Shown one piece after another: positions 3,001 to 64,000 of a DNA stretch of 64,000 nucleotides. How positions within the stretch are numbered: position 1 is the stretch's first letter; each line of letters opens with the position of its first letter. The position numbers and the translations under genes are program-made. The notes below the pieces were generated by a model, which was not told where the DNA came from, made no database searches, and saw only the letters and a program-made list of their open reading frames with translations. Origin of the DNA: Raillietiella orientalis (Eukaryota); contig JAYWIR010000005.1 of NCBI GenBank assembly GCA_036172245.1, positions 1,364,001-1,428,000 on the forward strand, read 5' to 3'.

Positions 3001-6000
3001 CTTCAAGGGGCGTGGTACCTGCGCCACGTGGAGGAAGACGCCGACTTCATAAAGCCGTCCCACGTCGCCAGTCGGGAGGATATCATGGAGGCGTTGTCCG
3101 ATGTGAAACACCTGCTCATCCGGTAGGGCCGCGCCCCACCCGTACCCCCCGGTGGCACGCACATGCTCCCTCCCTCCCCTCTTCCTTCTCCTCAGGGCTC
3201 AGTACACGTCCGACTCGATCGTGGACGCTACCCTGAGGGACGTCTCTCTGGACTACGCTACGCCGGGACATGCAGGGGCGCGGGCCATCACTGTGGAGAG
3301 CTGCGAGTGCCCCAGCGGCTACGTGGGACTCTCCTGCCAGGCAAGCGGCCGTTCCTTCCTCGTGCGCGACGCCGTCCTCCCTCTTCTCCCAGGACTGCGC
3401 AGAAGGCTTTGAGAGGCAAGGGACCGGTCGCATCCGGGGCCGCTGCGTGCCTGCTCGGACCGAGTGCCCCAGAGGGAAGTACCTGTCCCCGTCCACGAAC
3501 CGCTGCGAGCCGTGCCTCTGCCCCAACTCGCTCTCGCCGTAGGTGTAGCCCACACCCCGCCCCCGGCTCTCGTGCTTCCAGGGGGCCCCGTCCTCTCTCT
3601 ACCACCACCGCCACCCCTTGCCACCTCCCTTCTCGGCCGGAAACTCGACCGCCGCAGGCATGTTTCGTGCGAAGCCGGGCCAGGAGGGACTCCCGTGTGC
3701 AGGTGCCCCGAAGGAACCGAAGGCCGAAGGTGCGAGTACTGCTCTCCGGGATACGTTGGCAACCCCGTGCGTGGGGAGCCCTGCGTCCCCGGTAAGCGCT
3801 GGGGAGGAGAAGGGAGAGAGTGACGCCCCAGGGCGTGTTTCCTCCTAGGGGCGGAGTGCCATCCCGCCGGAGGACAACCGGACGCCCAGGGTCGGTGCCA
3901 GTGCAAGGTAAGCGCCCAGCCCCTCAGCCCCCCGGGAACCGCCCTGCTAACGCGGCTCCCTCTCCGTCTCTTTTCATCTTGCTTACGCGTGGGGATCGGT
4001 GAGTACCGCCTTCTTCTTGGTCCTCGCTTTGCCTCGTTGCTGTGTTTCCTCTTGTTGTGTCTCTTCTTGTCGCCCCTCTTTCTCCTCCTCCTGCTGTTGC
4101 TGTTTGTTTCTCTTTTTGCTTTTCTCCTTTCTCCTTTCTGCCATTGCTGTTTTTGCTCTCGCTGCTGCTGTCGATGTTTCCCTTGTTCTTTCTTTCTCCT
4201 CCTCCTGCTGTTTCTTTTATTGCTGTTGTTTCTCTTTTTGTTTTTGCTGTTTTTGTTGTTACCATTGCTGTTTCTGTTTCTCCTATTGTTTTTGTCCTTT
4301 CCGTTGTTTCTCCTGCTTCTTTTATTGCTCTTCTTGTTTTTGTTGTTTATGTTGTTGTTACTGCTGTTTCTGTTCCGTTTTTCTCGTTGCTGTCCCTTCT
4401 CCTGCTGCTGTTTCTCTTGTTGCTGTCGTGGTTTTCGTTGTTCCCCTGCTGTTGCTGTTGTCGTTTCTCTCGACGGTGGCTTCCTTGTTGCTTTTGTCGT
4501 CTTTGTTATTGTTTCGGCTGTTCATCCTCTCGTTGTTGTGCTGTTTTTCTCGTTGTTGCTTTTCGTGTTAATGTTTTTTTTTTTCCCCCCCCCTCTCTTG
4601 TCGTCGCGGTTGCTGTTTCGCTTCTTGTTGCTGTTTCTGTTGCTGCCGATGCTGCTGTACGCCCGCGACGCGGCGTCCTTTTTTGCCATCCGTCCTTTCC
4701 TCCTCCACAACCACCACAATCACACTCTTCCCTGCGAAACGGCAGGGCACCTCCGGGAACGGACCGCTGCGGTGCGCCGCCCTGAGCTCTGCCGCGGAGG
4801 AGGAGCAAAGGGAGCGTCGACTGACGCTCGCCCTGCTCCTCCTCTTATTCCTGTTCCTCCACCGCCTCCGCGCGGTGCACCTGCCACCGGTTCTTACTTG
4901 CCACCCGTGCCCCACCCTTCTGGCTCTGTCTCCGCCGGCCGCCGCGACTGCGGCGGTGGCGACCCCGACGACGGCGACGCCCGCCGTCTGAGGCGAGACG
5001 CGAGCCGAGAGAGGCAAAGAGAGGGATCTCGGCTGTCCTTTGGCCTCCTCCTTCCTCGCCTGCAGGTCCCCTCCCCCTACGCCCCTTTCCTCCCAGACCC
5101 CTTCAGCGCATGTCTTTCAGGTTCTCCCTCCGGAGGAACCACGGATCACAATTAAAAGCGTTTCTTTTAATTTCTGCTGTGCGTCCTTCTACTCCTCCCT
5201 TCCCCTCCCCCTCCTTCCTTCCTCCGTTTTCTTTTACCTGCGCTGCTGCTTCTCCCTATGGAGAAACATGATGGAAAGAGGGAAAAGAACGTAGGGAAGG
5301 GGAAGGGAGCTACAAGGAGTCCTCTTCCGGCAGGTGCTGCTGTCATCAAACCCTCGTTTCGAAGTGGAAGGGGCGTGGCAGTCTCATTTCAACCCTTTAT
5401 CCCCTCTTTGTTTTTTGTGAGGGAGGAGGTGGGAGCAGGAGGAAGGTCCCTCTTCAATGAATGCTCCTCCCTTTCCTCCCTCCACTCGAGGCAGGGGTTG
5501 GCAGCACAGGTTCTTCTCCACTTCCTCCTGGGAGCTCTTCGTGGCCAAACGAGGACTCCTTTCGCCGCTCCCTCCCTCCTCTCTTCTCGTTTTCCTTGCG
5601 CTCCGTCGCTTCCCGCAGGAGAGGGCCTCCCGGTGGCTTCCTCCTCCTCCTCCTCCTCTACGCAGCAGCAAGGAGGGGATGCCACGGAGTACGCCCTTGC
5701 CTTCGCCGACTTCGCCTGAGGCACGCGGCCACAACGGCGACGACCCGCGCGGTCTAGGAGGAGGAGGAGGAGGAGGAGGAGGAAGGGGGGGGGGATGGAG
5801 TGGAAGAAAGGGCGAGCGCAGGCGGTTTCTGCCTTCTCTTGCCCCTCGGAGGCCCGCCCGCCCCCTCACCTTTTTGCCCTTTCGTGGCGGAGGGGAAGCT
5901 CTGGGGTGGCCGCCCCTGCCCTCCGGCACATCTGGTCTCCTTTCAGAGCAACGTGCAAGGCGCCAGCTGCAGTGAGTGCAAGCCCGGCGCCTTCCACCTG

Positions 6001-37952: not shown

Positions 37953-40900
37953 CTAAAATGAAAGTTTGTAACCAAACTGAATTAACATGCGCGCGCTGGG
38001 TGAAAAACCCAAGGATGGATGGGCGGGTGATTCATTTTCACAATTCCACCAACGGTACAACCAACAACCGCAGAGCAGCTTTTCACGGTGTACACTTTAA
38101 AAAACAACAACAATAGACCACATATACCAACACGACAAGCGGATGCTCCGGGTCACCGAGGAACCCCAAGTTACTGCCGAATGCTGTACAAAACTAAAGT
38201 GAGAGTGCATCACGTCGCACTTACACAAGGTAATTAGCACGGGAAGAACACACGTACATGTACAGGATGTGTGGCATGTACATCCCGACGATCCAGATAA
38301 GTAAAGGAAACGTACTCGAGACACTTTCTGTTTGCCCAGCTCACACAGTACTTTTCAGGGGGGTCGAATTATGACTCGTGCGCCGTTCCTTTTCAGAGCA
38401 AAAGGCTCAAATGGGGAAAGCGGTGCCCCGAAGCAAAGCTGAAGCCAAACGAACCACCAGACATGACTCGGACACCACTGTATGCTCCCCGGACACGTCC
38501 AGAGCCACTTCCCCAACACTTTCTCACTGAGCCGTGTTACCGTTGCGCTAACATCTTATACCCCGAAATTGAGCGTGTTGAAAAGAAATCCCCCCAAAGT
38601 AAAATACATTACATCGAGCGTGCAGTGTACTCACCCCAGCGAATTATTTAATTGCAAATTCAGGGTTTGGGATTTTTCTTTTCTTTTTTTTCTTTTTCCC
38701 TGCCCCCCCCCCCCGTGAGTGAGTGCTGGGGACCGCGGCACACGGGCCACGTAAAAATGCAGGAGATTTGGGAACCCTCATTACACTCGAAAAATGCTTG
38801 TGTTGTGCGAACACTGTTTCAGTGTTCGTCTGGAACAAAGGAAATTGAATAGGAACGAGAGGATACGTGCACGCGTTTTATTTTTTTTCTCAACCTGATG
38901 AAGGAACTGCTATTGATTTATGAATCATATACATCATATGCATGTTTCTGATACATTTTTTTCTCTCTCTCTCTCTCTCTTTTCGCCAGTCGTCAACGTG
39001 AATTTTGATTTCCAAACCGCGGGGGCATACCAAATTTTGTGTTCTTTTCCTCACGCGTGGTGCTGAGTAGCTGAAAGAATTATTTACTTGGTGCACGATC
39101 GATTCGCTCTGTGTGATATAACTTTAATCACACCCTAGTTGAATCATCAGTGCAAGAAATTCAGCCTCCATCCATCCCCGAAATCCCTCAAGTTCGCACA
39201 CCAGCAGATGGCTTTCACAGCAGCATGTATTCGAGATGGAAAAGATTGCAGAACACTGCCGAACATTGCACGTCCATCCCAAATGGGAACACGAATTCTT
39301 CCAAATGCTGACTGCCAGTTGGGTCTTTCCAGAGTGCCCAGAACTAATTTCTCAAAAGAGGAGGAATTAAATGGACGGGTTTTCAAGCTTTCTTCATGGC
39401 TACAAAATATTTCGTCCTTTCCACGATTTCGTTGTGGTAATATTTGCTGATTTTCGAACAAGCATGATAAACACATGTGCATGTGCTGAATTATTATAAT
39501 TTTTCATTCCTAGCGTGCATTTATTAAACACAGCCATCAGTATTCCATGCAAACAGCATTTTGCAGCACCCTTTACGGGTTGCACATTCTGTAAACCGCA
39601 AAGGATTCGTTTTTAGTGCTCCTTGTGTTCGTGCTCCTTCACCCAACGAACAAACTTTAAAGTCCACTGTTCCCTTATAGGGCGTAGGGAGCTGGAATGG
39701 AGAAATGTGATAACAGGGGTTCTGTTGGTCTCTTGAAATACGAGGATATTTGACCCCCCTGTGAACACTTAAATAGAATGCCTGCGTCGTTATCTGAAGA
39801 GGTGAACTAGGATTTAAATTTAAAAAAAAAAGGGAGATAATGGAATGCATTTTAATTACAAGCATGTGGCAGTTTGCTGAGTGTTTGCTTCACAGAGCTG
39901 ATTGTGTGAACTGTCATAGCACATCGTTGCACAACAAAGTGTTGCAGTGTGCTCCGAGAAGATAATGACTTCAAAACTCAGTGCATTTATGTAATTCGAG
40001 CCTATGGCTTTCGTTGGATACATGCTCATTTGAGAAAGAAAATAACTTTGAAATGGGAAAAGACTTTCGACTTAATGAAATGAGTTTTCCGGACACTAAT
40101 CTGGTTTTCTTTTTTTTTTTTTTTTGCTGATAAATGTGATTTTCGAACCAGACTGTTCTTGAACAGGGATGTTTTGTTTGCAGTGGAGGAAATCAGAAAC
40201 TTTCGTTTTCTAAACTCTGAAACTTTCATTCTCTAAAAAAAATCCTTCTTCCAGCAAATAGCTAAAATATGCAGACAGTAGAAATGGAATGAAATTGGTG
40301 GTAAATGTCTAGTCACGATATTGATTAAGCTGCTGCTGAATTTAAAAAAAAAAAAAAATAAAGTCAGTGCTGTCCACACAGTCACCACGAAGTTGAATGT
40401 CGCCTCAATTCCGGAGACATTTTCTCAAAATCAAAGGTTTCTTATTTATTTATTTTTTCCCTTTTTAGAAGACTAATTGCAAACGTTTTAAGTGAATTAT
40501 ACAATCAACAGATGAATCGATGACATCAACCTCAAAACATATCTCAGTAGATTTTTCAGAGAATTCAGAAGTACACTCTGAAAAATCTGAGTAAAGAGTC
40601 AAATACTAAATTAGGATTGTCCATTATGCGAATTGATTTTACCGAGGGCAAACTTCTTACTCTTCTTGTAATCTGGAGAAGTCCCGAATTAGGATCTGAC
40701 TCTGACGAGAAATGATTTATTAAAAAGCAGTCGCCCACTTCGAAGGGAAAATGCAACGTGGAGCAAAAGTATGACAGCTAAACAGTAAAAGTCTTCAAGG
40801 ATGAAAACAATCATAAGAATGGTAAAAAAAAAAAATTGTTTGGTTGCAAATGATACCGGCAATAGTAATAGTGATTAGTCTAATGGTTTTGCAAAGTCAA

Positions 40901-45756: not shown

Positions 45757-48700
45757 ATGGTATGCTTTTGTATAATTTTGGGCTTTATGGTTTTTAATTC
45801 AAGTAAATAAAAGTGTGAAATTGGTTCTTCATACGTGTTGCAATTCATTTAATTGTCCTACAATTAATGATATGTATGTCTATTTTTGTGAAGAGAAAAA
45901 CAAGAAAAAGATTCGCCAGGAAATTAAGGATGAATGTATTTTAAGTTATTGTCCGTTGCAAAATAAAATTTTGTAATGTTTCATGGAACATTTTGGTAGT
46001 GGAATATTTGTATTTTTGTTTGTAAATTTGTTAATGAGAAATAGGATTGCTTTCCAAGGTGCCTTTTTGAATTAATCCAAGGATGTTAGCCTTCCCAGGT
46101 TTAGGGGCAGAAATCTTTTGGTTTGCAAAGTTAGCGTCGGCGCATGAAAATAAGTAAACTATTTCACGCGTTTTTTTATTTTTAACTGATTGATTAAAAT
46201 TATAGCCAATGTGAAGTGTTTGATTGTTCCAAATTACTATTTTCTTTGAAGCCTTTAAGATTGGAAATCAAGAGGAAGCTCACTTCACGATCAGATAGGG
46301 TGAAGTGTGTGGATCTCCATTCTAAAGAACCTTGGATGCTAGCTGCATTGTACAATGGAAATGTGCACATATGGAATTATGAACTGCAGCAATTACTTAA
46401 ATCCTTTGAGGTACCAGGAGTACTAAGATTATAATCTTATTCATGTAATCCATATGATGATCTAGGTTTGTGATCTTCCTGTTAGAGCAGCCAAATTTGT
46501 AGTCCGTAAGAATTGGGTGGTCACAGGTTCAGATGACATGATTGTCCGTGTTTTTAATTACAACACCTTAGAACGAGTACATAGTTTTGATGCACATTCA
46601 GATTACCTACGAAGCATTGTAGTGCATCCAATGCACCCATTTATTCTAACAAGCAGTGGTCAGTAACAGGGAGTTTAAAATTTCCTGTGATGGGAGACAC
46701 TAGATGATATGTCCATAAAACTTTGGAATTGGGAAAAACAGTGGAGCTGCCAGCATGTCTTTGAAGGTCACACACACTATGTTATGCAGATTGTAATTAA
46801 TCCCAAAGACAACAATACATTTGCCAGTGGATCACTAGATCGTACACTTAAAGTAATTGATCTTTTTTGATGCATCTAATAACATATTTTATAGGTATGG
46901 CAACTTGGTTCATCAGTAGCCAACTTCACACTTGAAGGCCATGAAAAAGGTGTGAATTGCATTGACTATTATCATGTTGGTGATAGGCCATACCTTGTTA
47001 GTGGTGCTGATGATCGCTTAGTTAAGATCTGGGACTATCAGAACAAATCCTGTGTGCACACGCTGGAAGGCCATGCTCAAAATGTAACAGCAGTTTGCTT
47101 CCATCCTGATCTGCCAGTAGTACTAACAGGCAGTGAAGATGGCACTGTGCGTCTTTGGCATTCTGGTACTTATAGATTAGAAGCTACTCTGAACTATGGA
47201 CTGGAAAGAGTTTGGACAATTGCTGCTAATCGTGGCTCCAATAATGTGGCTCTAGGATATGATGAAGGTAGCATTATTATCAAGGTAACTTCTGGGTTGA
47301 CTGATGTCAGCTTGAGTGCAACAAAAAAATAGTTAGGGAGAGAAGAACCTGTTATATCCATGGATGCTAGTGGAAAGATTGTCTGGGCTAAACATTCTGA
47401 AATTCAGCAAGCTCACATTAAGTTGTCTGGAGACACATATCCCCAAGATGGGGAGTTGCTCCCACTTACTATAAAAGAAATGGGTAGCTGTGAAATCTAC
47501 CCTCAAACCATATCCCATAATGCTAATGGACGATTTCTTGTGGTTGTTGGTGATGGTGAATACATTGTGTATACAGCTATGGCACTACGCAACAAGGCTT
47601 TTGGCAGTGCCTTAGAATTTGTATGGGGAGCTGACTCATCAGAGTATGCTACTCGTGATATCAGCACAGTTACAATATTCCAAAATTTTAAAGAGCAACG
47701 CTCTTTCAAACCTGAGTTTGGTGCTGAAGGTAAGTAGTTCTTAATACCCTTGGAAGAGGATGTGTGGGTTTCAGGTATATTTGGTGGTGTTCTGCTGGGA
47801 GTACGTTCCAACATGGGTTTGGCCTTCTACCAGTGGGATAATTTGAAATTAGTGAGACGCATTGATATACAGCCACGACATGTCTTGTGGGCAGAGTCAG
47901 GAGAGTTGTTATGTATTGCAGCTGAAGATAGTTATTTCATTCTGCGTTATCAGTCTCAGAAGATAACTGATTCAACTGCAGATTCAGAGGATGGTGTAGA
48001 AGGAGCTTTTGATGTAAGATAAGCCTTGTTGTAGTTCCTTGTTGTATCCTATGACATTGTATCAATTCAGGTAATAGGGGAAATCAATGAGTCTGTGAGA
48101 ACAGGCCTATGGGTGGGTGATTGTTTCATCTATACCAGTTCAGTGAACCGACTAAACTACTATGTGGGTGGAGAAGTGGTGACAGTGGCACATTTGGATC
48201 GTCCCTTTTATCTTTTGGGCTATCTGCTGAAAGATAGTCGTTTATATTTGGGAGATAAGGAACTTGGCATAGTCTCCTATTCATTATTGTTGCCTGTGCT
48301 GCAATATCAGACAGCAGTCATGCGCCATGATTTTGAAGCTGCTGATCGTCTTCTTCCTGCTATTCCACGAGATCAGCGAACTCGTATAGCTCATTTCCTA
48401 GAAAAACAAGGGTTTCGTCAACAAGCACTTGCTGTTAGTACAGACCCTGATCATTGCTTTGATTTGGCCATACAATTGGGTGAATTGAATATTGCTCGAA
48501 AGTATGCTCTGGAAGCTCACAGCGAGTTCAAGTGGAAACAGCTAGCTGAACTGGCAACCAACAAAGGACAGCTGACATTGGCAAAAGAGTGTCTTACTAA
48601 TGCAGGAGATCTAAGTGGACTTTTACTTTTGGCTTCTTCTTGTGGCAATTTGGAAGTGATTAAGGAAGTGGCAAAAAATGCTCAGGATACAGGGAAAAAT

Positions 48701-49315
48701 AACGTAGCTTTCACATCCTATTTCATATTGGGCGATGTGAGCCAGTGTTTGGATATTTTAATAGCTACAAAACGTCTTCCAGAGGCAGCTCTTTTTGCTC
48801 GAACTTATGTTCCCTCTAGGGTGAATGAAGTAGTGCAAATGTGGAAAAAGGTTTTGTCTTCCACTAATCCTCGAATTGCCCAAGCTTTGGCAGATCCTGA
48901 GAATTATGAAAACCTTTTTCCTGATTTTACCAATTCTCTCAAAGCTGAACAGTTTTTATTGAGGTCCGATCAACAACATATACCTGCCTCTCAGGCATTT
49001 CTGCAGCCTGTAAGAGAAAACGTTCCTTGAATTTTTATTATGTAACCAATAGATGAATCGCGATCGAAATCCAATACAAGAAATGCTGCAGTCTGACCTG
49101 GAAGGTCAGTTGTCTTCCAGGGACGAAGAGAGAGAGGCAGGAGACCATGATGTTGTAGAGGTAATTGATCACCTACCAGACTTGGAATTTTCGCCAATAT
49201 CAGCATCTCAAGACGACATCCCAACAGGTATTGTTATTTTGGATTCATAAGATGGTGATGATATGGTTTCATTTCAGTTACTCCTGTAAGAGTGTATATG
49301 CGACCAGAAGAGTGA
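45757..49315 (+). CDS. COPB2: Coatomer subunit beta' (beta'-COP); exons 45757-45759 (ATG only), 46252-46410, 46466-46658, 46704-46852, 46895-47284, 47333-47729, 47775-48013, 48071-49009, 49053-49227, 49278-49315
   Basis: [26 protein letters not shown]40 repeats ([40 protein letters not shown]), [47 protein letters not shown] and [10 protein letters not shown]. The start exon (CACAATG|GTATGC) and last small exon are less certain. Confidence 0.96.
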
Positions 49316-52191: not shown

Positions 52192-53332
52192 ATGGTCAAA
52201 CAAGTGGTTGAATTCTTCAGTGGAATAGGTGGCATGCATTATGCTTTAAACAGTAATGTAACATTTAAGTGGCATGTAACTGCCCTTTCAGCCAGTCATA
52301 ACTGAAATAAAAACGTAATTTTTAGAATCGCAAGTGGATGCAACTGTTGTAGCAGCTTTTGAAATCAGTAATGTTGCTAATCAAGTGTATAGTAGGAACT
52401 TCAATTCAGATATTGTCAAGCAGATTAATTTAGAATCTCTAACTGTAGAAAAGCTTCAACATTTGAAACCAGATGTACTTTTACTTAGTCCACCATGTCA
52501 ACCATTTACCAGGTTTTTTGTTTCATTTTTATTTCCGGCAGTGTCATTTCATCTGTTCCCAGAACAGGTTTGAAGAGAGATATACATGATAACAGATGTA
52601 AAGCTTTTACAAATATCTTATATTTGTTAAAGCTCTTGCAGCCTAAACCAAAATATCTATTTTTGGAGAATGTACAAGGTTTTGAAGAATCTGAAGCTTG
52701 CTTGCAGTTGTTGCAGGTACTGCAGAAGTGCAAGTATCATGTGCAAGAATTCATATTGTGTTCTACTCAACTGGGATTTCCCAATTCTCGCTTACGTTAT
52801 TATCTGTTAGCTCATTGGGATTCTTCAAAAGAACCTCAGCATCAACAAGTAACAAACAACACCAAAGAACCCATTTATTGGTTATTTCTGCTTTGTAGTT
52901 AAGGAAACAGTTTCCTGTTCTTGTAAATCATGTGATGCAATCACATATTAGTGATTATCTAGTGGAAAATGCAGAAGACAAATATTTTTTATGTCCTGAA
53001 ACAATTGACCATTATGGAAATGCCATGGATGTGGTGGAATCCCATGATCAACATTCCTGTTGTTTTACTCGCTCTTATGGTCATTATATCAAAGGTACTG
53101 GGTCGATTTTACGTACAGAAAATGGACGACTCCGTTACTTTACACCACGAGAAGTTGCCAATTTGCTAGGTTTTTCATCAGATTTTGGTAAATACTTTTC
53201 CCGGCACACTGTTTCTATGTCTCTGTAGTGCTTCCAGAACTCAACACCCGCCAACAATATCAGTTATTAGGCAATAGCTTGAATGTTGGTGTTGTGGCAG
53301 TCCTTTTGAATTATTTATTAAATTGCTGTTGA
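52192..53332 (+). CDS. TRDMT1: tRNA (cytosine-38-C5) methyltransferase DNMT2; exons 52192-52252, 52326-52512, 52563-52848, 52899-53187, 53229-53332
   Basis: C5-MTase motifs EFFSGIGGMHYAL, SPPCQPFTR, LENVQGF, PNSRLRYY, LRYFTPREVANLLGF and LLGNSLNV, plus the DNMT2-diagnostic CFT (CCFTRSYGHYIKGTGS). Confidence 0.95.
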
Positions 53333-53649: not shown

Positions 53650-54065
53650 TTTATGATAGTGAAAAGTACTGAAAAGGATTTAAGTAAATAATAAGAAAGT
53701 ACTCAGGTTAACTAACTTGGGTACTTTCTTTTGTATCAGAGTAAAATAAATTAAAAATTTATATTTAATGTTCGAATGTTTATGAGTTAAATAAAGTGAT
53801 TGCTATGCGTGATAAAGTATAGTTGAATTTTATTTGGAGGTGATATGCTGACAAATTAACATTTCTAATTAATAGGTAATGGAGCAGGGATAACCTTGTT
53901 TTTTTTGTAAATGTAAGATAATAATGATAAGTTATGGGCTTAGAGGTAGAGGGTTTTAATACTAAGTTAATATTGATTTTTAAAATATTATATAAATGAA
54001 ATGTAATTAATAATAATTTATGTGAAATAACGTTTTAATTAGTAAGAATGTTGAATAAGATTAAG
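53650..54065 (+). pseudogene. rrnL: Probable NUMT: degenerate 5' part of mitochondrial large-subunit (16S) rRNA
   Basis: Very AT-rich, C-poor island with collinear motifs I recall from arthropod mt 16S: agtactgaaaagga, cttttgtatcagagt, tcgaa..gagttaa, gaggtgatatgc, gggataa, ggcttaga and aattagta. Confidence 0.6.
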
Positions 54066-57000
54066 TTGTGAATGTGCAGCTATTTTCTTTTTTCTCGAAA
54101 GAACCCATTGCATGTTTGAGTAACTGAAGTACCAGCATTTTTTGCTTCTTTTCTCCGTTAAAAGTTCCGCAGGTTTCTTGCTTGCAGTCTTCAAAATAGT
54201 TGTCTCAGTTCTCATGCAGTTTGAAGCAAAAATCTGTTCTGATGCTTCTGTTGTTTAATCACCTGCTTTCATGCCCTAAAAGAGTTTGCAGAATTCCCAA
54301 TCAATAGGAATCGTTTTGAGTCATCAACTTGCACTGCCATCATGGAAATCTGGTTATGGAATGTACGTTGAATCTTTACATATGACAGCTACAGGCAATC
54401 GTTGCCACTGTCTGCAAATTCTGTCATAGAGAGAGAAATAAAGAGGAAAGACCGAATCGAATCATTGTTAATAAACACGTTTCTTGAAACGGTTCATGAG
54501 GGCATCTTGTATTCCCATGATCTGTACTAGAAGCCCAGAATGTTCTGCTTTCTGAAGCTGTTACATTGTTTTGTGAGGACAAGAAAGAATCTAAAGCGAG
54601 CATTCACTATAGCTGGAGAAATCAAAAAAGCACTGCCAAAAGACATCCAAGCTGTTTCCGCAGCATGGGCATCCCGTTCCCCTGAGACAGGCTCGTTTCT
54701 GTGGCCAATTCAAAGCTGCTGTTCGTTGTTACTTTGATGCTGGCTCATTGGTATGGCAGTTTCTTTTGTAGGTATGCCCTCAGATGCTAACCATCATTTG
54801 TGGCCACACAAATCCACAGTTTGTGCATTAGCATTATTGTTCCGCTGAAAAATAAGACTCCATCATGGTCACATCTTTTGCCATCTTTTGCCTCTGTGGT
54901 GTTTTTGTTGTCAGCATCCTGCATTTCTTCATGGATTATGTGGAGCTCATCTTTTAGTCTTCTACAGTCTCTTGGTCTGGGAGTAGGACACAATGTGCGT
55001 GCTTGTCAGACAATATGTAATATTGTTTAGTTTCTGCAAGATCACTGAAAACCAGCAAGATTTGTACACTTCTATAATCAGTAAATTCCAAGCTGTTGAA
55101 GGCCGAATGCAGGTCTGAACGTTAATTTTCAGATGCTCCTCTGAGATGGCCAAGTCAAAGAAATTGAGAAACTGCGTGCAGCTGCAAACTAACGCAAACA
55201 TTTCATGGCGAACGCGTGTTGAAAAGGCATCTGTTGAAAGAGATGATATTACACCAAAGACGACATTGATCCCATTAGATGCAGGAAACTGTAAGCCCAA
55301 GACTTCATTTTGAATTTTATGGAGTCGTAAAGGAACTGGATTCAAGTGCTTCAACATCTAATCCAGCCCCTGGCCACAACTTTGATGAAACTTGTGTTCC
55401 CAATATCATCTTTAGATCAAGCACAAGGTAGCTTAAATAACGTTAAAGAAAAACAAGGTTTGCCATCACCGGGATTCCATGAATAGAAAATTCATAATGT
55501 AACTACTTTCGTTCTCATCAAAGCATTTAAACAAATGTTATCAGTGATACGTTCTATTTAGGGACCATAGATTTTGCCAGAGAATCGGATCTTTTTAATA
55601 TGCACTTTGAATCCTCGTATCAAAATGCACCGAACGTCGAAAAGCACGATGCTGAGAGTAACTTCATGTGAAGCTTTTTTGTTTTCCTTTGGCTTCCCTG
55701 AAACCGTGTGAAAACTACGCGGAATCGGTGGTGACCATGGACAGCATGCTTTCCGGGGCAACATGCCAACCATCTATGTGGCTCGAGGCAGGCAAACATC
55801 AGATGCGGCGGATCATGTAATCTCCGCTGTCGAACAGACCACACTTGATTTCTATTCCGTGGAAACGCTGCTGACATCTGAGTCAAGAGCGTGGTCTCAA
55901 GGTGCAGTTTGCACATAAGCACAACGAACTTGGTGGAGCAAGTGATTAATACACTAACACTTCATTTCCGTCCCCGACGCAAATACTGGACGCTGCATTC
56001 TCAAATAATGAAGTACGTCAGGAACGAGCAACTCTTGATATTCATCGATCAAGGGTTGCGTTTTTGACCAATTCCTTGTATCCCTGTTAACTGTCAATAC
56101 TGTTGCACGAGCTATAAGAAGGGAAATGTGCAATGTTAGGCGGAGCACAAGCTTAAACCCATGTATGCATGGCTCTATCTGAAAAAAAGGAGGATCTCGG
56201 AATGATGCACAAAGAAATGGATAAGGTTCAGCCTGGAAGAAAAATGAATGGATTAGACATGTTGGTAGATGTAACTTTTAAGACAAACGGCGTACCCTGA
56301 GCGAATGAAAGACCAAGAATTCCAATTTGAAGCGAGGTATTGATTGCAATGTGTTTAGGATCTGCTTGCTCAGAATCTTTGAACGATGTCATCAGTTTCA
56401 TTTCTTTCATTCTACTTCCTCCCTTTTCAGCCTTTAACATTCTCTTCGTGTCTTTTGTTGCGGCCAGCTTAGCTGAGGCGAAAGACAGAAAGAAACATAC
56501 ACGATAGCTTATGTTCCTGGAACCATTAGGAGTGAAGATCTTGTTCCGGTCTATAAAGGAGCAAACTTACATGGAAACAGAAGAGATGTCAAGTTGCCAA
56601 TGGATCTCGGGAACGAGCATTTAGTTCTCTGCAGAGTGTCTTTCCTCCCCATGATAGCTGATGCTCCAGGGAAGCATGAAAGAACAGGACTCCTGTTATG
56701 TTTCCCTCAAATAGAATTCCATCAAGAAAAGAGAATAATGCCCTCAGGAGATGAACTGCTTAACTTTTCCTTAAGCATGAAGTTCTAGTCGAGTGAACAG
56801 TGAGATTTAGACTGTGAAGTCCAGCGTATTCTCAGCGGCTCCAGCTTCGGAGAGCAGTCCCTCTGCTCTCCTTCTTTCCATCCAGCAGCTCCTGTTTCTC
56901 TATCGAACTCCTTCGTCGGTGCGCTCGTTTACTCTTCCCACCACTTTTGGTCTGATCATACTCCTCGTTCTCTCATTCCCTCTCCTCTTATTCATATCTT

Positions 57001-57949
57001 ACCACATCCTCTGCACAGCTCTGCCTTCCATTCTCCTGCATCCTTTACCGATTCCTGCCACTTAATCCGCTCCCTTTGTCGTTCTTACGATTTGCATTGA
57101 GGCTGTGCACTTAGTCGCTCTCGATCCGCTGGTGCTTGAAGGGATGCTGTGGCTTCAACAACTAGTGGAAACACTAGTGGCTGGAGAGCCATTGTGGTAT
57201 CATTGGAAGAACACCAGGAGGAGGGCTCTTAAGTCCTTTTTTTCGGAAAAGCTGCCTAACTAGTTCCTGCGCCGACACCGCTCATTTCACACGGTGCCAG
57301 CACAGGCTGCGGATGGGGCATTCAGTGGCGCTCCGCTGCAGCTCATCCACGCTGCTGGCATCCGAGCCGGAGATAAGATTGGGTCGAAACGGAGATAGCA
57401 TTGCAACTTTTGATGATGCTTTCGGAAGCACAGAAGTCACCACAGCGGTATCCACCTCGTAAGTGGCTACACAGAATGATAGAAGTAAGACCATCCTGAA
57501 ACGAACGCACACGCCAAAGCCATCTTGCATCACTTGCTGCAACTGTCGTTCAAGAACTAGTTACGTGGCTTTCCCGGAATGTTTGGTGCAGCGAAACGAT
57601 TCTGGAGTCTGGAAAAGGAGTTCTGTGTTGCAGAAGAGTAGTCAGTCTGCCTTCAAAAGGTTGAGATGGCTCTCGGTCCGTTCCTGGATTTTGTCTTGTT
57701 GGGACGGGCTACCATCTAGAATACTTTTTTCGCTTCCTTCCTCCGACATTTGTTTTTTGTTTGTCCGTCCCCTTATTCGGGCGCAGGGTCTCCTTAAGAA
57801 AGGTCTGTGGAGCGGCGCAAGTTCCCGTACTCTTCTGAGAGAATTGATGGCGCCGCGCCAGGATTCTGGCTTGGGCATCTTGATGATCCAGAAGATCGGA
57901 CTGCAGGCGCAGCTCCGTCTATTGATACTGTGTGCCAAATTGTAGACCT

Positions 57950-59128
57950 TGCTTTTCTGCCTCATCCTTCGGCGATGGACTTCTTTCATTGCTGGAGCGC
58001 AGCCGTCACAGTATAACGGGATTCGACTTTCCCCGGAGGCAATTATCTTTACTCTTGAAAGTTCATCCTTGAATCTCCTGCTTCCCGAAAAATTCGCACG
58101 CCTTGTGTTCAGAGGCACTGAAGTCCTGGACTGCTACTCTACATGTGCGTAAAGAGAAACTTTTTCCCCTGAGGAAACTCTTCTGCATATCCCGGGAGAC
58201 AAACTGCAGGATGGGCGCAGTTGCTCCGTCTGACCATCACACCTCGTGCCACAGCACTCTGTGCTAAGGGCAAATGATCAAAGCAGCCTACCAACTAGGT
58301 GGAGGTTTTCCTGCACTATTGAAAGAATTACGAAGCTCCTGGATGGCTGGAAGATGAGTGAGTTGGTGGACGGTGCCATTCCTAGTTCCCAGGCAAATGG
58401 ACTCCTTCGGTAGGGTGACTCCCAGAATTACACGTAGTCTGACCCTTGTGGGTAGACACAACGGTGCACCCGTTGCAATGAAAACGGAATGTTCTTCTGT
58501 TTCTGCACTGGAGCTTGCAGTGCAACCAGAGAAGGCATCTGGTTTACAGGGATGTTGCCTCCTAGGACTGTTTAAGGAGAAGGGGAGCAATGGTATCGTT
58601 CACGCACCTCTTGAGAGGCCCTCGAGGAATTCTGGAGGCTGTATTTGGCGCTCCGCCATTCGGAGTACACCGCCACGGACCTGCTGTGGCTTTTTTTCGC
58701 GTGTGGCGGACTTTCGGACCGCACTGTAATCGCAGCGAGGTGTTGCATCTGCGCCATTGGCACAGCCCGCGGCGTACTAAAGCTCCGAGTGCAGGGAAGG
58801 GAGGCCGTCTGCACGGCAGCTGCCTTGATGAGGACGACTTCCAGGTGGCTTCGCCTCCAAGAAGCTTCCAGAGAGATCGCCAGCATCCAGCTCCAGGAAG
58901 AAACGAGTGAGTGGATGACACCAAAGACCCCCCATCCCATCTCCTTCTTTTGATTCTTTATTGTCCCCTCTCTCCCGCTCTCGACTTGCTTAAAAGTCGG
59001 TCTGCATGTCCGCGGTCATTTCTTGCGAATTTATGTTTTGTTGCTGTTGTTTTCCGGGAACTCGGTTCCCAATGATTAGTAGGTTTATTTATGTTTAGAT
59101 GAATGTCCCGGAGTCACCAGTTAAGACC
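57950..59128 (+). mobile_element. Unknown ORF-bearing repeat family, copy A (decayed)
   Basis: Across stops and frameshifts it reads ..LQDG..KLLDGWKMSELVDGAIP..NGLLR*GD..GPRGIL..AARCCICAIG..GREAVC..LMRTTSRW..EIASI. Then a T-rich tract, a hairpin at 59056-59070 and the terminal motif atgaatgtcccggagtcaccagttaagacc. Confidence 0.6.
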
Positions 59129-59559
59129 GAGAAAGGGGTGAGAGGCGATAAGAAAACAGAGGTTATCCGGCACAAGGCGGACGGAGTCCCAAGAAGGCGG
59201 AGTGGGGAGGACACACCGCGCAAAGAGGGAGATGGGAGCATGACAAATGGAGCGAGCAGGACGCGCAGAGATATGCGGACGGGAAGCTTGATGGCAAGCG
59301 ATGCTGCACGTCAGAATCGTCGCGCCATACTGACAATAAAGCACGAAACGCGTCGGCCATCGCCGCTCCCTGCCTCAAAAACGATCGAGCGCTACGCAGT
59401 AGTGCCACTCTTACCACCTTCTCTGTACAGTCAATCACTTTCTGCTCGCCTTGCCCTAACCCTGAACAAGTGCTTCTCACTGCAAACCATCCGCTTACAC
59501 GCCCTAGGCGCCACGCTTGTTGCTGGCACGTGGCCGCTCTGTCCTTGCGTAGTCCGTTA

Positions 59560-60213
59560 AACTGCAGCCTGCCACCATCGCTTCGCTTGGCTACAAAAGT
59601 TTTGGGTTCTCACGCCAAGTGTCCTATGTAGCGTGTCAAGAAGTCTCACCTCGACGCCGATTCTGATGATCGTCTAGCGAAGACCCTTAGAATTCCGATG
59701 GGTGGCCCCAGGGGCATCTTCAAACACCTTTTCGTGCTTGCCTCACTGTTGCCGCCCTCATCCCTCACAGTTCACTGTTGTCTTCTGCGGTATAATGGTG
59801 GCCTGGAACTCAGGAAGACGAGACCAGAATGGAAGGGGCTCCATACACAGGACGAAAATCTTCTTGAGGACCGCCACGACATGGCCCCACCGGGGCAACA
59901 TCCCGAAGGAACTTCTCGCCAGCATCCTGGGTAGTTTGCAGAGAACGTCTGTAAACTATCCAGCGAACAGTGGTCCCTTCTCCAATCTTCTTTTCTCCCC
60001 TCGAAAGACCTCTCTTTCCTTTTTTGTTTCTTTATTTTTGTTTTCGGTTCTCCCTTCCCCTTCGCTGCTGAACTGGACCTCGCCAATCCGCGTAAGGGGA
60101 GATTCGCAGCTTCACTGTTTTTTTTTGTTTAGGACTTGTAGGACCAAGAGTCCTACTAGAAATGGCTGTTTATTATTTTTAAAATAGATGCCCCGGAAAA
60201 ACCTGGTGAGAAG
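59560..60213 (+). mobile_element. Unknown ORF-bearing repeat family, copy B (decayed; 5' limit uncertain)
   Basis: TLRIPMGGPRGIFKHLF..VHCCL/GIMVAWNSGRRDQNGRGSI..FLRTATTW..ELLASILGSLQRT. T-tract at about 60010-60050, hairpin at 60138-60156, terminal motif at 60187-60213. Confidence 0.6.
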
Positions 60214-60227
60214 CCTCGACGTCGAAT

Positions 60228-60975
60228 TTCTCATCTGGTTGAGGCGGAGCGTTTATTGTATTCAATAAACATACAAGGGTAGTGGCAGGACTGTCGGTCG
60301 CATCACGTCCACTGATCTATGAAACTGTAGAAACCGGCGAGGAACGCCTCGACATCAGTAGGGAGGGGAGCAAACAAAAACAAAAATAAAGCAAAAAACA
60401 AATATGAAGGAAAAAAAGGAAAGAAATTTTGGAGGTCTCGGGAAGGGATCATTGCCTGCTTTTGAGCGTCCTCTGAATCCATTCAAGGATGCCGAGCAGT
60501 TCGGGCTGCATGCTTCCCAGACGGGTTCATCTCGTTGCTAGGAAACGGGCAGCAAAGTAAATGGTGTTCCTGCCGTTCTCGTCTCCTCTCTCGGCAGCGC
60601 TTCGGGCGGCCACAATCCCACGTAGGCAGCCAAGAGCTCGTAGGGATGCGGCAAGCGGTTGGGTATCAGGTGCGAAGAGGCGTTTCAAAATGTCTCTGGG
60701 GTTGCTGTCCGGGATTCGAAGGGTAGACGGCAAAACGTTCCCTTAGGGCCGGAGGGCAACACTTCTACTATTGCATTGGGATTCCTCAATGCAGTAGTAG
60801 AAGCGCCGAATCCTGCCACTTGAGAGGGAAGGTGCCACTGTTCCAAAGCACTGAGAGCCACTTGAGATGTTCGCGGAGAATTCTCAGCAGGACCCCGAGC
60901 GCTTGAAATCATCCATCTCCCACCCAAGCATACACTCTACTGGAGAACGCTGCTAAGCAACTCCTCCCTTTTCCG
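60228..60975 (-). mobile_element. Unknown ORF-bearing repeat family, copy C (decayed)
   Basis: PLKWQDSALLLLH..TLRIPDSNPRDILKRLF..AASLRALGCLRGIVAA..GRNTIYFAARFL..LLGILEWIQRT. Clear nucleotide similarity between 60464-60762 and 62005-62299. Confidence 0.65.
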
Positions 60976-61479
60976 GTCACTTAACAGTGCAAGGCCCTTA
61001 TAGATTTCCTGTTTCCGTCCAGCAGTCTACGACCGGACGCCGACCATCATCTGGAAACTCGTGCAGCACGTGGCAAGGACGTGCCAAGAAAAAGGACGTG
61101 CATTTACTCCCTCCAGAGCAAAGCTTTCTGTCTTTGTTTTTAGCTTTTTTTTCTTCCCATTTCCGTTTCCTCCTCCCCCTTTTCTTTGTTTCTGTTTGTC
61201 CCTTTTATTGGCCTCTTTTGCTGTTTCTTCGTTGTCTTCTTACGTTTTTCCACGCACGATCATGCGTTTGCAGAAGGGTGACAATGGCAAGGCGACCTTT
61301 GCCATCTTGTGAGGCTCATCTCTTCGACTCATCAGTATGAACTTATAAAGCTTTCAGCTAATGTGCGGTCCCTGTGCTGTGCTCTTTGGATCTCCTAAGG
61401 AATGTTTCGCCAAGCTTGCTGATTGGTTGGCAGCATGTTCTAGAAAGCTGCTTTGTGTTCATAAAAAAAGAAATCACGA

Positions 61480-61808
61480 GTGCAGCGAAGTATGGAAGTC
61501 TGGAATCCAGTATTGCAACTTTGGAAGTGCGCTCAGAGGAACTACGGCCGCCACAGAATCTCCTACGTAAACCGCTGGGAGATCTGCTGCAGGATGGGAC
61601 GCAGCGGTCCCGAGTAGTCGTTTCACCCCTTGCCACACCACTATCTGCCCTTAGGGCAAGAAATGACAGCAGCCAACTGTCGGAGCGGGAGTTCTCCTGC
61701 AACATTGCATGAGTCGAGAAACTCCTGGACAGCCACAAGACGAGAGAGTTGGTGGACGGCGCCGCTCCTCGTTTCAGGGCAAAGGGACTCCTTCGATGAA
61801 GTGACCTG
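61480..61808 (+). mobile_element. Unknown ORF-bearing repeat family, copy E (internal fragment)
   Basis: ctgcaggatggg..gagttggtggacgg..ggactccttcg is shared with 58204-58409; it translates GDLLQDG..KLLDSHKTRELVDGAAP..KGLLR*SDLLG. Confidence 0.65.
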
Positions 61809-62800
61809 CTTGGTTTATAACTCGGTCACGCCGGGACATTCGTTGTAAAAAGTAAACATATAGGTGTAGAGCCATCTGCCCTATATCGTTCGAAAATGTT
61901 TGGAACCTGACGAGTAACCGGCACATAGGCCGGCGAGGTTCGCCTCGGCAGCGGAGCGGCAAGCAAAAATAAAAATTAATAATAATAATAATAAAAACTC
62001 TGGAGGGCGTCCTCTGAATTCTTTCCAGGATGCCTGTAAGTTCCATCTGAGTTCCCAGGTTCCCAGCTTGCTGCCGTCCTCAGGAAGCGCAGGACGAAGC
62101 AGATGGCATCCCTGTCGCGCCGTCTCCCATTCGCGAAGCTCCAGGACGCCACAATCCCACTAGGCAGCAAAGAGCTGCCAGGGATGCGGCAGGCGAAAGG
62201 GCATCGCGCACAAAGAGGCGCTTCATCACATCCTTGGGATTGTCATCGGTGCACCAAGGGTCGTTGTGTAACGCAAGCACAGGGGCCGGAGGGCAACACA
62301 GTCTACAATCAAATGCGAGAACTGGGATTCCCGGTCCCCTCACCTGTAACACTTGGGCTCCACAGCCCCCCAGGTCCAGTGAGACCGGTGGACGTTTCGG
62401 GAGGCCCCAGTGCAACAGCCGAAGTGTTGATTCCTGCCACTTAAGGGAGAGGACCCGATTGTTCTTCAGCTCTGGAGGCCCCTCGAGGTCTTCCTGTGGG
62501 GTTCCCAGCAGCTCACCCCAGCGCAATAGTCCTTTCGGTGGGGCACTTGGGGTCTCAGAGTCTGTGAGTTGGTCCATGGGCCAATCATCTAATTCCTCCG
62601 TCTGAGGACCTATTTCGCGACTAACTCCCCATTTGACCGGCTGGTTACTGCCCAGGTGCTCTCTGAGGGAGGGCAATGCCGCGGCCAAAGAGGTTCTTTG
62701 CGCTCACGCACACGTGGTGGACTGCATGATGACGTCCTGCAGCGAGCTGTTGTCGTAGAAAGAGCGCAGTAGCCGCTGCCCCATCTCCGGTCTCGTTTCG
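61809..62800 (-). mobile_element. Unknown ORF-bearing repeat family, copy F (best preserved; 202-aa ORF 62688-62080)
   Basis: KGLLRWGELLG..LSLKWQESTLRLLHWG..PVSLDL..RLCCPP..DNPKDVMKRLF..AASLAALCCL/GIVASW..RDAICFVLRFLRTAASW..ELTGILERIQRT. (TTA)n/T tract and terminal motif at 61843-61811. Confidence 0.65.
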
Positions 62801-62984
62801 TCGGGTTCTTGGCCCACGTGCGAACTGTTTCCTGCAACCATGCACTACCGTTCGCAGGCCGGCAAAAGATCCAGTTGTTGGTCCTGGGTCAGCTTGGCCA
62901 CTCCGGAATTTCAGTCCGCAGCTGGACAAGTCGCGTCTGCGCCGGCGCGCCAAGAACAAAGACAGTCCCGCGTAGCTGGTGGCT

Positions 62985-63790
62985 CTCTTGACCAGGTTTT
63001 TCACCCGGATAAGCCGGGCTTTTACTATTAAAATTTTACAATAAAATCTTATAATAAAGTCTGGTTCTTTCGGAAGTTTTTTCAGTCAGAACATAGTTCT
63101 GACTGTCTTGTCGCACTTGTCCATACCGACCCGCAGGCCGGTGAGATCCTCTACACGGGCGAAGAAGGTGGGGAAACCAAAAAAAAAAAAAAACCAAAAA
63201 AACAAATACGCAAGGGGGGACAAAGTTCTAAGGAAAGAGGAGGGAAGGGAAAGGATGACAGTACGCCATGAGGAGGCCTCTGCATCCGGTTTTCGATGCG
63301 GACAAGTACCGGCAGAATTTTTCTTAGCCGGCGCAAACGGAAGCCTTCTCCATATAGATGACCGCCCAGTGAATGGCATTTCGACTACTGCGGCCTCTCC
63401 TTGACGCGGTCCACTTCTCCAGGATTCCGCGTATGCAGCAGAGAGCTGTAACACACGCGGCGGCTGGAGGGGCGTCCCGCATCAGGAGGCGACGCAAAAT
63501 GTTTTTTGGGTCGCCCACCGAAATGTTCACAATCGACGAGAGTCGATTTCACATAAGCGGAGGGCAAAACACTCGATTATTAGGTGGGGGAAGCTCTTCC
63601 TTTCCCCAGACTCTGCACAATTGGCATCCATACTCCCTAATGTCCAGTGGGAGAGGCATCCCACCAAAGAAGACGGCATCCAAAGCCATCCCACTTCCCC
63701 GTGTCCTTCTAGGGAGCGGAGGTGGTTTGGCATTGCTCAGCGGTCTAGTTAGTGCGAAGGTTTTCAGTGGTTTTGTCTGGTGTGTAGGAG
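62985..63790 (-). mobile_element. Unknown ORF-bearing repeat family, copy G (may extend to or beyond the window end)
   Basis: PLPLDIREYGCQLCRVWG..RVFCPP..GDPKNILRRLLMRDAPPAAACVTALCCIRGILEKW..RNAIHWAVIYM..RMQRP. T-tract at 63207-63174 and perfect hairpin at 63083-63105. Confidence 0.6.
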
Positions 63791-64000
63791 AGCCGGTGTC
63801 CCATGGCAGAAATGCCTGAGGACACCGCGATGGAAATTGGGGGAGGAGAGGCGACTTGCTCTCCACCACCTATGAAAGTGGGGGCGTCCGCCCCCACGGA
63901 ATCCGGGGCACTTGCCCCATCGGAATCGGGGGCAGCCTCCCCTTCGCGACCCTCTTCGCCAGCGGCGAGGAGTTGGAGTGCCGTCGTTGCTGCACCATCC

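Follow-up and report, generated by a model that had tools for sequence, protein, structure and literature searches.

The end of the window (the whole stretch of 64,000 nucleotides analysed) raised the question of what kind of sequence unit had accumulated there in disrupted copies of both orientations. Tblastn and profile searches showed that the region from 57.9 to 64 kb holds at least six mutually homologous, degenerate copies (A, B, C, E, F and G) of one protein-coding unit on both strands. The longest open frame of copy F (62083-62703, minus strand, 207 aa), used as tblastn query against the window, matched G at an E-value of 4e-6, A at 6e-6, C at 2e-5 and 1e-3, and B at 4e-3. All-vs-all tblastn of the 187 stop-free peptides from 57-64 kb produced 24 non-self matches at E ≤ 1e-3, and all 24 fell within 58.1-63.7 kb. 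These results agreed with the first-pass annotation, which had proposed six mutually homologous segments here. At the nucleotide level, only the closest pairs were detected by blastn, namely A 58204-58409 with E 61587-61795 (71% over 209 nt) and C 60609-60687 with F 62148-62225 (80% over 79 nt). Profiles from the copies gave no other convincing match in the remaining 58 kb of the window; a single marginal profile match outside the cluster was located at 39403-39612 (minus strand, E 0.015-0.04). Stops or frameshifts, already noted for the whole set, were seen in 6/6 copies, and all copies at this locus are dead.

Copy A (57950..59135, plus strand) was delimited by tblastn and by Smith-Waterman alignment against E and F and is near full-length with several frameshifts and stops. 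Its 5' limit is an estimate from collinearity with E and F, its 3' end gave a 3'-end profile match at 59084-59135, and the tryptophan of its KGLLRW motif is replaced by TAG at 58411-58413. The stretch that follows (59136..59560, plus strand) may be the decayed 5' half of copy B, judging from a weak collinear match only (18 residues weakly collinear with F, hhalign E 0.25; zero profile matches). Recognisable copy B (59560..60225, plus strand) consists of the C-terminal domain with one frameshift, a pyrimidine-rich tract (60013-60050) and the 3' terminus (profile match at 60167-60225). Copy C (60215..60975, minus strand; profile match from 60273 down to 60215) is 5'-truncated and, of all copies, preserves the C-terminal domain (60452-60742) best, a single TGA standing in place of a W. 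Copy E (61341..61812, plus strand), 71% identical to A in nucleotides, comprises the 5' part only, with a 116-aa open frame (61362-61709) plus 28 aa, and breaks off directly behind the KGLLR*SDLLG codons, where the 3' end of F cuts in. Copy F (61812..62986, minus strand; profile match from 61860 down to 61812) is a complete unit of 1175 nt with two in-frame TGA codons and two frameshifts near the C-terminus, and is bounded on its 5' side by the terminus of G. Copy G (at least 62987..63869, minus strand; profile match from 63043 down to 62987) lies head-to-tail upstream of F. Its C-terminal domain spans 63327-63548, its middle part (63552-63869) shows weak similarity, and its 3' UTR is longer; the 5' extent is a lower bound, the window end being reached. 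All six segments first proposed thus stood, and their limits shifted slightly with the 3'-end profile for A (end at about 59135), B and C and to the extents given above for E (from about 61341), F and G. A candidate 3' fragment, D (60976..61340, plus strand, pyrimidine-rich tract at 61130-61250), was read by eye; nothing was found there by nhmmer with the 3'-end profile and no profile supports it. Extra truncated copies Z (upstream of A) and D (upstream of E), which together would give a textbook pseudo-LTR layout, were not supported.

The unit is approximately 1.15-1.2 kb long: a short leader is followed by one ORF of about 300 codons and a 3' UTR of about 230 nt, which holds a pyrimidine-rich tract, and the last 50 nt or so form a conserved 3' terminal block. 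Nhmmer placed the block in 5/6 recognised copies, ending at 59135, 60225, 60215, 61812 and 62987, with a profile built from these same five copies; other matches in the window all had E ≥ 0.7. Copy E, cut by the 3' end of F, is the sole recognised copy without it. On the 5' side A, E and F extend to roughly the same point, and B and C are shorter or unrecognisable upstream. Among the recognised copies, 3' ends are kept preferentially and 5' extents are variable. The termini read ...GACC, ...AGCC, ...AATT, ...AACC and ...AACC and pass directly into other sequence. No poly(A) or microsatellite tail was found at the copy termini by reading of the ends and TRF, and no telomeric repeat was present according to TRF. 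No target-site duplications were found at these abutting decayed copies, which do not permit their assessment. An AATAAA-like word was read by eye about 25 nt before the terminus. The terminal block also has a short palindromic word, CCCGG..CCGGG, perfect in G only. A suspected 3' hairpin was no better than shuffles (z -1.3 to +1.2 in 6/6 folds).

All six protein motifs listed in the first-pass annotation were found, in the order given there. KGLLRWGELLG is intact in F and has a stop at the W in A and E, LKWQ(E/D)S was found in F and C, and xP(K/R)xIxxRLF in F, C, G and B. ALCC(L/I)RGI was found in F, C, G, B and A, RxAIxxxxxF(L/M) in C, G, B and A and, past a frameshift, in F, and GILxxIQRT in F, C and B and, frameshifted, in G. 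The N-terminal and middle part of the ORF is poorly conserved and probably disordered. The C-terminal domain (about 85 aa) is conserved and predicted to be four-helix, with a domain model pLDDT of 72; the larger protein model had a pLDDT of 44 and was unusable. Differences per site at codon positions 1, 2 and 3 were 0.44, 0.40 and 0.56 in a DNA-guided alignment, and pS was 0.68 vs a pN of 0.36 when pooled over 547 protein-guided codons. The third-position excess of differences indicates that the lineages diverged with the ORF under selection, and from these substitution patterns most copies appear to have diverged under purifying selection and decayed later. A coding origin followed by divergence as functional lineages, as first suggested, was upheld by both measures.

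Searches for a known identity gave no assignment. The copy ORFs had zero Pfam matches at E ≤ 1, nucleocapsid and gag-like families included, and a six-frame read-through of 54001-64000 at E ≤ 0.1 showed no reverse transcriptase (RT), integrase, transposase, Rep, helicase, GIY-YIG or nucleocapsid domain. The earlier reading of the cluster as free of RT, integrase, transposase and Rep domains therefore held in every frame across 54-64 kb, and no RT partner was found in the same interval. The full profile had no sequence match to PDB chains at E ≤ 10, the C-terminal domain model (the only one used for fold matching) had none in BFVD below E 0.89, the best being a phage protein, and there was no Atlas match and zero matches among the viral contigs searched. 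A Rfam gathering scan of the window gave 0 matches, hammerhead included, and the E-value mode over 56.5-64 kb gave 5 chance rows and no ribozyme.

A profile search of 1.84 billion representative proteins found only one relative, the 87-aa metagenome fragment P0001, matched in the same frame at E 1e-17. This fragment, from another sample, shares 64-71% protein identity with F, and as an independent match it shows, together with the matches among the copies and the third-position excess, that the family and its frame go beyond chance. Neither the 1.84e9 representative nor the 5.8e9 clustered proteins yielded an intact or annotated member. In addition, a single public DNA run from this organism contains exact pieces of the locus and many further diverged copies: 128 contigs align to 52-64 kb at ≥80% likeness, 96 of them being <90% alike and 117 fitting partially. 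This copy number comes from one low-coverage run with short contigs, in which dispersed and arrayed copies are not distinguishable. The in-frame TGA of E at 61710 has G in place of T in four of the contigs. Within the cluster, adjoining copies are not nearest kin; the closest pairs are the A-E and C-F pairs detected by blastn. C and F differ by about 33% over the C-terminal domain; F-G and B-C differ by about 41-46%; G and F share about 27-47% protein identity. With neighbours that are not nearest kin and a multi-copy state elsewhere, the locus fits an accumulation of separate lineages, and the initial suggestion that they came together later at one locus would be in line with this.

The junctions between copies are of several kinds. 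G and F are head-to-tail with a unit spacing of 1175 nt, and 1090 nt separate the terminus of A from that of B. B and C meet tail-to-tail, overlapping by about 10 nt across a palindrome (60218-60227), and the terminus of F sits inside E, mid-ORF, with F inverted relative to E. Another recognised copy adjoins 3/5 intact 3' termini, and a self-targeting element, an idea already raised for this cluster, is possible. We favour, at even odds (a probability of about 0.5), a nest in which six or more decayed copies of an unclassified mobile element have accumulated, with a non-autonomous retroposon as the most likely identity of the unit. The unit would make only its own protein, of an RNA-binding or packaging type, and an RT acting in trans, from a LINE or Penelope-like element, would recognise the conserved 3' end and copy the unit into the genome. 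Copying of this kind would explain why 3' ends are kept and 5' ends are variable, and would account for the head-to-tail, tail-to-tail and nested copies. Against a retroposon are the failure to find an RT partner, target-site duplication, poly(A) or microsatellite tail or ribozyme, an only outside relative that is itself an 87-aa fragment with no intact copy found, and a head-to-tail spacing of about one unit, which is also expected of a tandem gene array.

Penelope-like elements are among the closest known parallels. Sections of Craig et al. (2021, PMC8557442) describe 5' truncation, partial tandems and adjacent inverted copies for these elements, non-autonomous derivatives which have 3' ends in common with autonomous ones and form head-to-tail multicopy insertions, and the Naiad and Chlamys clades without a hammerhead ribozyme. 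The copies here resemble what those sections describe in their 5' truncation, head-to-tail and adjacent inverted copies, shared 3' end and nests that are hard to delimit. Of this insertion architecture, head-to-tail G-F, inverted B/C and truncated C were found, and the pseudo-LTR-forming copies before A and E were unsupported. Unlike Penelope-like elements, however, the copies lack RT, GIY-YIG (in any frame) and hammerhead, and the unit carries its own orphan ORF. The unit is also 1.2 kb against 3-4 kb, and the inverted pair B/C is tail-to-tail, whereas head-to-head pairs are described for Penelope-like elements.

HeT-A of Drosophila telomeres is described, in sections of PMC5537684, as a pol-less, single-ORF retroposon in head-to-tail arrays. 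The likeness to HeT-A, within those sections, lies in one structural protein, no enzyme, dependence on a partner RT, variable 5' truncation and head-to-tail arrays in which the 3' UTR runs into the 5' end of the next element. HeT-A as portrayed there is about 6 kb long, with a poly(A) end, and occurs at chromosome ends only and in one orientation. The copies here have no poly(A), mixed orientation, no telomeric repeat and no gag-like Pfam match. HAL1 ("half-L1") elements are a case similar to HeT-A. Arrays of protein-gene-derived units of about 1.2 kb with degenerate members, which could feed small-RNA silencing, are also known from Stellate and Suppressor-of-Stellate in Drosophila. Units of the Stellate type are near-identical within an array and derived from a known host gene (CK2 beta), whereas the copies here are deeply diverged and their protein is an orphan.

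The main rival is a lineage-specific host multigene family arrayed in tandem and inverted order, perhaps fast-evolving or near a telomere, in which all members here are pseudogenes and local duplication and rearrangement acted without transposition. We consider it rather unlikely. It would accommodate the unit-length head-to-tail spacing (1175 nt from G to F, 1090 nt from the terminus of A to that of B), a unit resembling a small intronless gene with leader, ORF and a 3' UTR carrying the AATAAA-like word, the past purifying selection on the ORF, a conserved C-terminus and 3' UTR beside a variable N-terminal half, and the failure to find a transposition enzyme or terminal repeat. However, neighbouring units are not the most similar ones: E, F and C have their nearest kin at other places in the genome or in a different sample. 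E is also cut mid-ORF exactly at the terminus of an inverted copy. The preferential retention of 3' ends, the lack of an intact or annotated member among the 1.84e9 representative and 5.8e9 clustered proteins and the death of each copy within 6 kb also argue against a host family.

Very unlikely, in our judgement, are endogenous viral elements, that is, repeated integrations of a gene such as a nucleocapsid from an unknown virus lineage into a trap locus, maybe a piRNA cluster. Such a trap would fit a single locus with many diverged dead copies in either orientation and an orphan protein whose conserved domain is helical, and the host resembles an under-sampled invertebrate (COPB2 ≤67% identical among the proteins listed, insects best), a kind of host in which trap loci for viral integrations are known. 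Yet no viral protein family, structure or contig matches, and the ends are without poly(A). Moreover, tens of further family contigs exist in the genome, and conservation in deeply diverged copies extends beyond the ORF to the non-coding leader, the pyrimidine tract and the 3' terminus, which points to a self-contained genomic replicating unit rather than to repeated capture of a viral mRNA. The phenuivirus nucleocapsid lead of the first-pass annotation was not borne out by Pfam, PDB or viral contigs, or by the best BFVD fold (E 0.89); the likeness to phenuivirus or tenuivirus nucleocapsids is limited to a loose spacing of few residues, small size and helical character. Concatemers of a rolling-circle or circular replicon inserted at the DNA level, whether Helitron-like or a small circular element, would produce head-to-tail units of constant length and a conserved terminal block with a palindromic word, perfect here in G only, but this origin is highly improbable: Rep and helicase domains are absent, the hairpin is not significant, and the ends (...ACC, ...GCC, ...ATT) are not the Helitron 5'-TC...CTRR-3'. 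With about 27-47% protein identity, G and F did not arise as a concatemer of a single molecule. The cluster most likely stems from an unclassified mobile element of a poorly sampled invertebrate and not from a virus.

A bolder form of the mobile-element reading, which we regard as distinctly doubtful, is an undescribed kind of enzyme-less protein-coding element of 1.2 kb that hijacks a Penelope-like or LINE RT, targets its own copies, inserting beside or within them, and builds nests of mixed orientation that could be small-RNA source loci; its only product, the orphan protein, would combine a possibly zinc-binding CxxC...H...C stretch with the four-helix C-terminal domain. The find is modest, as new invertebrate genomes commonly contain orphan repeat ORFs and activity or function is not evident from any copy here. 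Should the mobile-element reading be true, the copies would represent a compact, RT-less, ORF-bearing repeat family of a poorly sampled invertebrate lineage. Such families escape domain-based transposon annotation and inflate the unclassified repeat fraction, and the junction pattern could then inform how partner reverse transcriptases make tandem and inverted insertions.

The last 6 kb of the window contained at least six decayed copies of one protein-coding unit: A (57950-59135, plus), B (59560-60225, plus), C (60215-60975, minus), E (61341-61812, plus), F (61812-62986, minus) and G (62987 to at least 63869, minus). The longest open frame of the cluster was found in copy F (62083-62703, minus, 207 aa), and a tblastn search with this frame against the window matched G, A, C and B at E values from 4e-6 to 4e-3. 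An all-against-all comparison of 187 stop-free peptides showed 24 non-self matches, all within 58.1-63.7 kb. Both searches showed that the mutually homologous segments described in the first-pass annotation were a real feature and had been rightly described. Its six protein motifs, including KGLLRWG(E/D)LLG, ALCC(L/I)RGI and GILxx(I/L)QRT, were all recovered by three-frame readings and local alignments with the same order in each copy, and the stops and frameshifts that it reported were found in every copy. At the DNA level, similarity detectable by blastn was left only between A and E (71% over 209 nt) and between C and F (80% over 79 nt). In-frame TGA in E (61797) and C (60524) and TAG in A (58411) were located at tryptophan sites of the other copies or of P0001, a metagenome relative of the repeat protein, and are ordinary G-to-A decay of TGG. 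An alternative genetic code behind these codons was rejected; frameshifts occur too. Separately, the conserved CC..GI motif of the repeat protein had one marginal counterpart (E 0.015-0.04) in an AT-rich intergenic stretch at 39403-39612 (minus); coincidence or a relic of great age may account for it.

Read in the sense direction, the ORF ended soon after GILxxIQRT and was followed by a pyrimidine-rich tract of 30-110 nt and, approximately 150-200 nt beyond this tract, by a conserved block, about 50 nt long, with the end ...GAGAAACC or a variant of it. An nhmmer profile of the 3' block, built from the same five copies that it finds, placed the block ends at 59135 (A), 60225 (B), 60215 (C), 61812 (F) and 62987 (G), and no further block was found in the window below E 0.7. 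Since copy F is bounded at both sides by 3' termini, its length is 1175 nt. The 5' point of A and E was approximately that of F, as seen from collinear translated N-terminal parts, with no start codon assignable. A candidate 3' hairpin was rejected; the short palindromic word of the block folded no better than shuffles in all six of six folds.

The copies were joined in several ways. The terminus of G led directly into the 5' region of F (head-to-tail), and B and C were joined tail-to-tail, with an overlap of about 10 nt that spans a palindrome (60218-60227). The terminus of F adjoined E straight after the KGLLR*SDLLG codons, and E therefore has none of the downstream parts. The A-to-B terminus distance was 1090 nt, and 430 nt between the A terminus and B were matched to no copy. 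Two further truncated copies had been suspected upstream of A (57463-57945) and of E (60976-61340), which if real would have produced a textbook pseudo-LTR layout; both were unsupported by hhalign (E 0.57) or by the 3' profile. Two more pyrimidine-rich tracts were observed upstream of A, within 56800-57950 (plus), at approximately 56850-57060 and 57740-57800. Their spacing is what would be expected if further units, decayed past recognition, lay upstream of A, but such units had no support from any profile. Upstream of G, an Ala/Pro/Ser/Gly-rich frame (63745-64000, minus) was open to the window end and contained 2.3 copies of a 24-nt tandem repeat at 63892-63946. This frame showed no similarity to the N-terminal part found in the other copies.

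Protein-guided alignments of 19 copy pairs (547 codons in total) showed 225, 184 and 315 differences at codon positions 1, 2 and 3, with a pS of 0.68 and a pN of 0.36. As protein-guided alignments favour a low pN, the count was repeated for the C-terminal region with a DNA-guided MAFFT alignment, where five copies in ten non-independent pairs gave 0.444, 0.396 and 0.563 differences per site at positions 1, 2 and 3. Variability was highest at position 3 and lowest at position 2, which is the prediction of the named strand and would not be given by a codon-aligned antisense frame. P0001 was called independently in a frame identical to that of the copies. The A/E pair was the exception (pS 0.28, pN 0.24), and its divergence is mostly from after inactivation. 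The coding origin proposed for the cluster is confirmed, with dN/dS well below 1 rather than near 1 for the deep splits.

The repeat protein is an orphan without a known family. Pfam searches of seven copy ORFs produced only sub-threshold noise (DUF4186, E 0.042; Itfg2, E 0.11), and when all six frames of 54-64 kb were read through, with X in place of each stop, there was one sub-threshold match only (DUF4232, E 0.055). Among 61 ORFs of at least 90 aa in 31-63 kb, taken from 82 after the 21 overlapping the copies were left out, host genes alone matched. Searches of the PDB by sequence gave no match for F or for profile A4, built from natural fragments (271 positions), and just two rows, both chance, at an E of about 1.2 for a second profile, A6. 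The ESM Atlas gave nothing usable with F or with P0001 (best score 0.80), and Rfam gave nothing in the window, including 56.5-64 kb searched also by E value. Against clustered proteins, a word-seeded homologue search with F had no matches and the C-terminal profile found P0001 alone. Profile A4 had two matches at E ≤0.001 among 1.84e9 representative proteins, P0001 and P0002, the latter of which was rejected as a relative because it is a low-complexity repeat protein. P0001 (87 aa, from a 2870-nt metagenome contig) spans exactly the C-terminal domain, is 64-71% identical to F and is the one member of its 90% cluster. Searches with P0001 found no metagenome contigs, and those with P0001 and F found no viral contigs. 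Six metagenome loci obtained with a degenerate codon pattern for ALCCLRGIV were all rejected as chance, the similarity being confined to the motif itself. AlphaFold produced an unusable, mostly coiled model for the first 231 residues of F (10 rows, pLDDT 44) and four helices for P0001 and the C-terminal domain (9 rows, pLDDT 72), for which Foldseek returned generic helix bundles only (best E 0.89 in BFVD and 1.2 in the PDB). The description of the protein as unassigned thus stands, since Pfam, PDB, Atlas and Foldseek gave no family. Upstream of the conserved domain, a CxxC...H...C stretch was seen by eye in both F and B, with parts of it also in G and C, and is only a lead for possible metal or nucleic-acid binding.

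One public DNA run contained exact 151-nt pieces of the cluster locus (0.10 share of words), which indicates that its source was this organism or one very close to it. A total of 128 contigs of this run were placed on 52-64 kb at a likeness of at least 80%; seven were at ≥99%, eight at 95-99%, 17 at 90-95% and 96 below 90%, and 117 of the 128 fitted only partially. The differences from the locus were mostly transitions, and four contigs carried G in place of T in the TGA of E at 61710. So many diverged contigs indicate that many more diverged members of the repeat family exist; as the contigs were short and depth cannot rank parts, no copy number or 5'/3' gradient follows from them.

The window is eukaryotic and animal-like in character and did not have any long prokaryote-style ORFs. 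Pfam identified a Bin3/MEPCE-type methyltransferase gene (36.3-38.0 kb, minus), a coatomer beta-prime gene in a single frame (46895-49027, plus) and a gene fragment whose open frame encodes a C-5 cytosine DNA methylase domain (52489-52899, plus, E 4e-11), which indicates at least one gene of this kind in the host. The coatomer beta-prime frame was broken solely by short in-frame stop-bearing stretches at 47330, 47735 and 48020-48034, which resemble mini-introns a few tens of bases long, and the best relatives of its product were at most 67% identical, insects first. The host is accordingly a bilaterian invertebrate with no annotated species closely related to it. The GC content was 0.62 overall (0.57-0.67) in 1-32 kb, 0.30-0.46 in 32-56 kb and about 0.53 in the cluster, with a sharp compositional break at approximately 32 kb. 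The CpG observed/expected ratio was 0.88 in 1-32000 and 0.41-0.74 in 32001-56000, and was 0.41 at the coatomer beta-prime gene compared to 0.81 in the repeat cluster. Many short open frames in 1-31000 resembled by eye laminin-EGF, laminin-G, EGF and immunoglobulin I-set exons, and their translations suggest a perlecan- or agrin-like gene. A long low-complexity stretch at 3319-5155 had several frames open, with K/N/R-rich and L/F/C-rich translations.

Any explanation of the repeat has to account for a self-contained, multi-copy unit in which non-coding ends are conserved together with the ORF, old subfamilies evolved under selection, different subfamilies adjoin, 3' ends are kept preferentially, junctions are head-to-tail, tail-to-tail and nested, and no enzyme of its own is present. 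We consider a mobile element to be the leading explanation, with a probability of about 0.5. Unit spacing and a gene-like layout would fit an array of host genes from one family as well, but neighbours are not nearest kin, E is cut by an inverted terminus and no intact or annotated member was found among the 1.84e9 representative and the clustered proteins, which makes such an array rather unlikely. The virus relic faintly suggested in the first-pass annotation was not borne out by any viral contig, Pfam or fold match; endogenous viral elements, for which no positive evidence was obtained and against which the joint conservation of ORF and non-coding ends argues, are improbable, and the cluster is best read as a family of orphan repeats, not as the relic of a virus. 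A rolling-circle or circular DNA element is more improbable still, with no Rep found by Pfam in 54-64 kb, the wrong ends, and tandem neighbours too different from each other.

For the mobile element, a retroposon mechanism in particular is put forward tentatively, as possible rather than probable. A non-autonomous retroposon, in which the unit would supply its own protein only, is favoured because of the mobile-element-like features, the 3'-anchored pattern, which would reflect reverse-transcription-based insertion, and the precedents of Penelope-like elements and HeT-A. For Penelope-like elements, PMC8557442 describes strong 5' truncation, partial tandems and an often adjoining inverted copy, and for non-autonomous derivatives common 3' ends and head-to-tail multicopy insertions. 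HeT-A is presented in PMC5537684 as a pol-less, single-ORF retroposon that forms head-to-tail arrays and relies on the reverse transcriptase of another element. As for hallmarks of these named families, no RT or GIY-YIG (Pfam, 54-64 kb), ribozyme (Rfam), poly(A) at the termini or partner in the window was found. The earlier idea of a piRNA cluster is a matter of putative function and not of origin. The main interest of the cluster is an ORF-bearing repeat without an enzyme that piles up in a Penelope-like or HeT-A-like manner.
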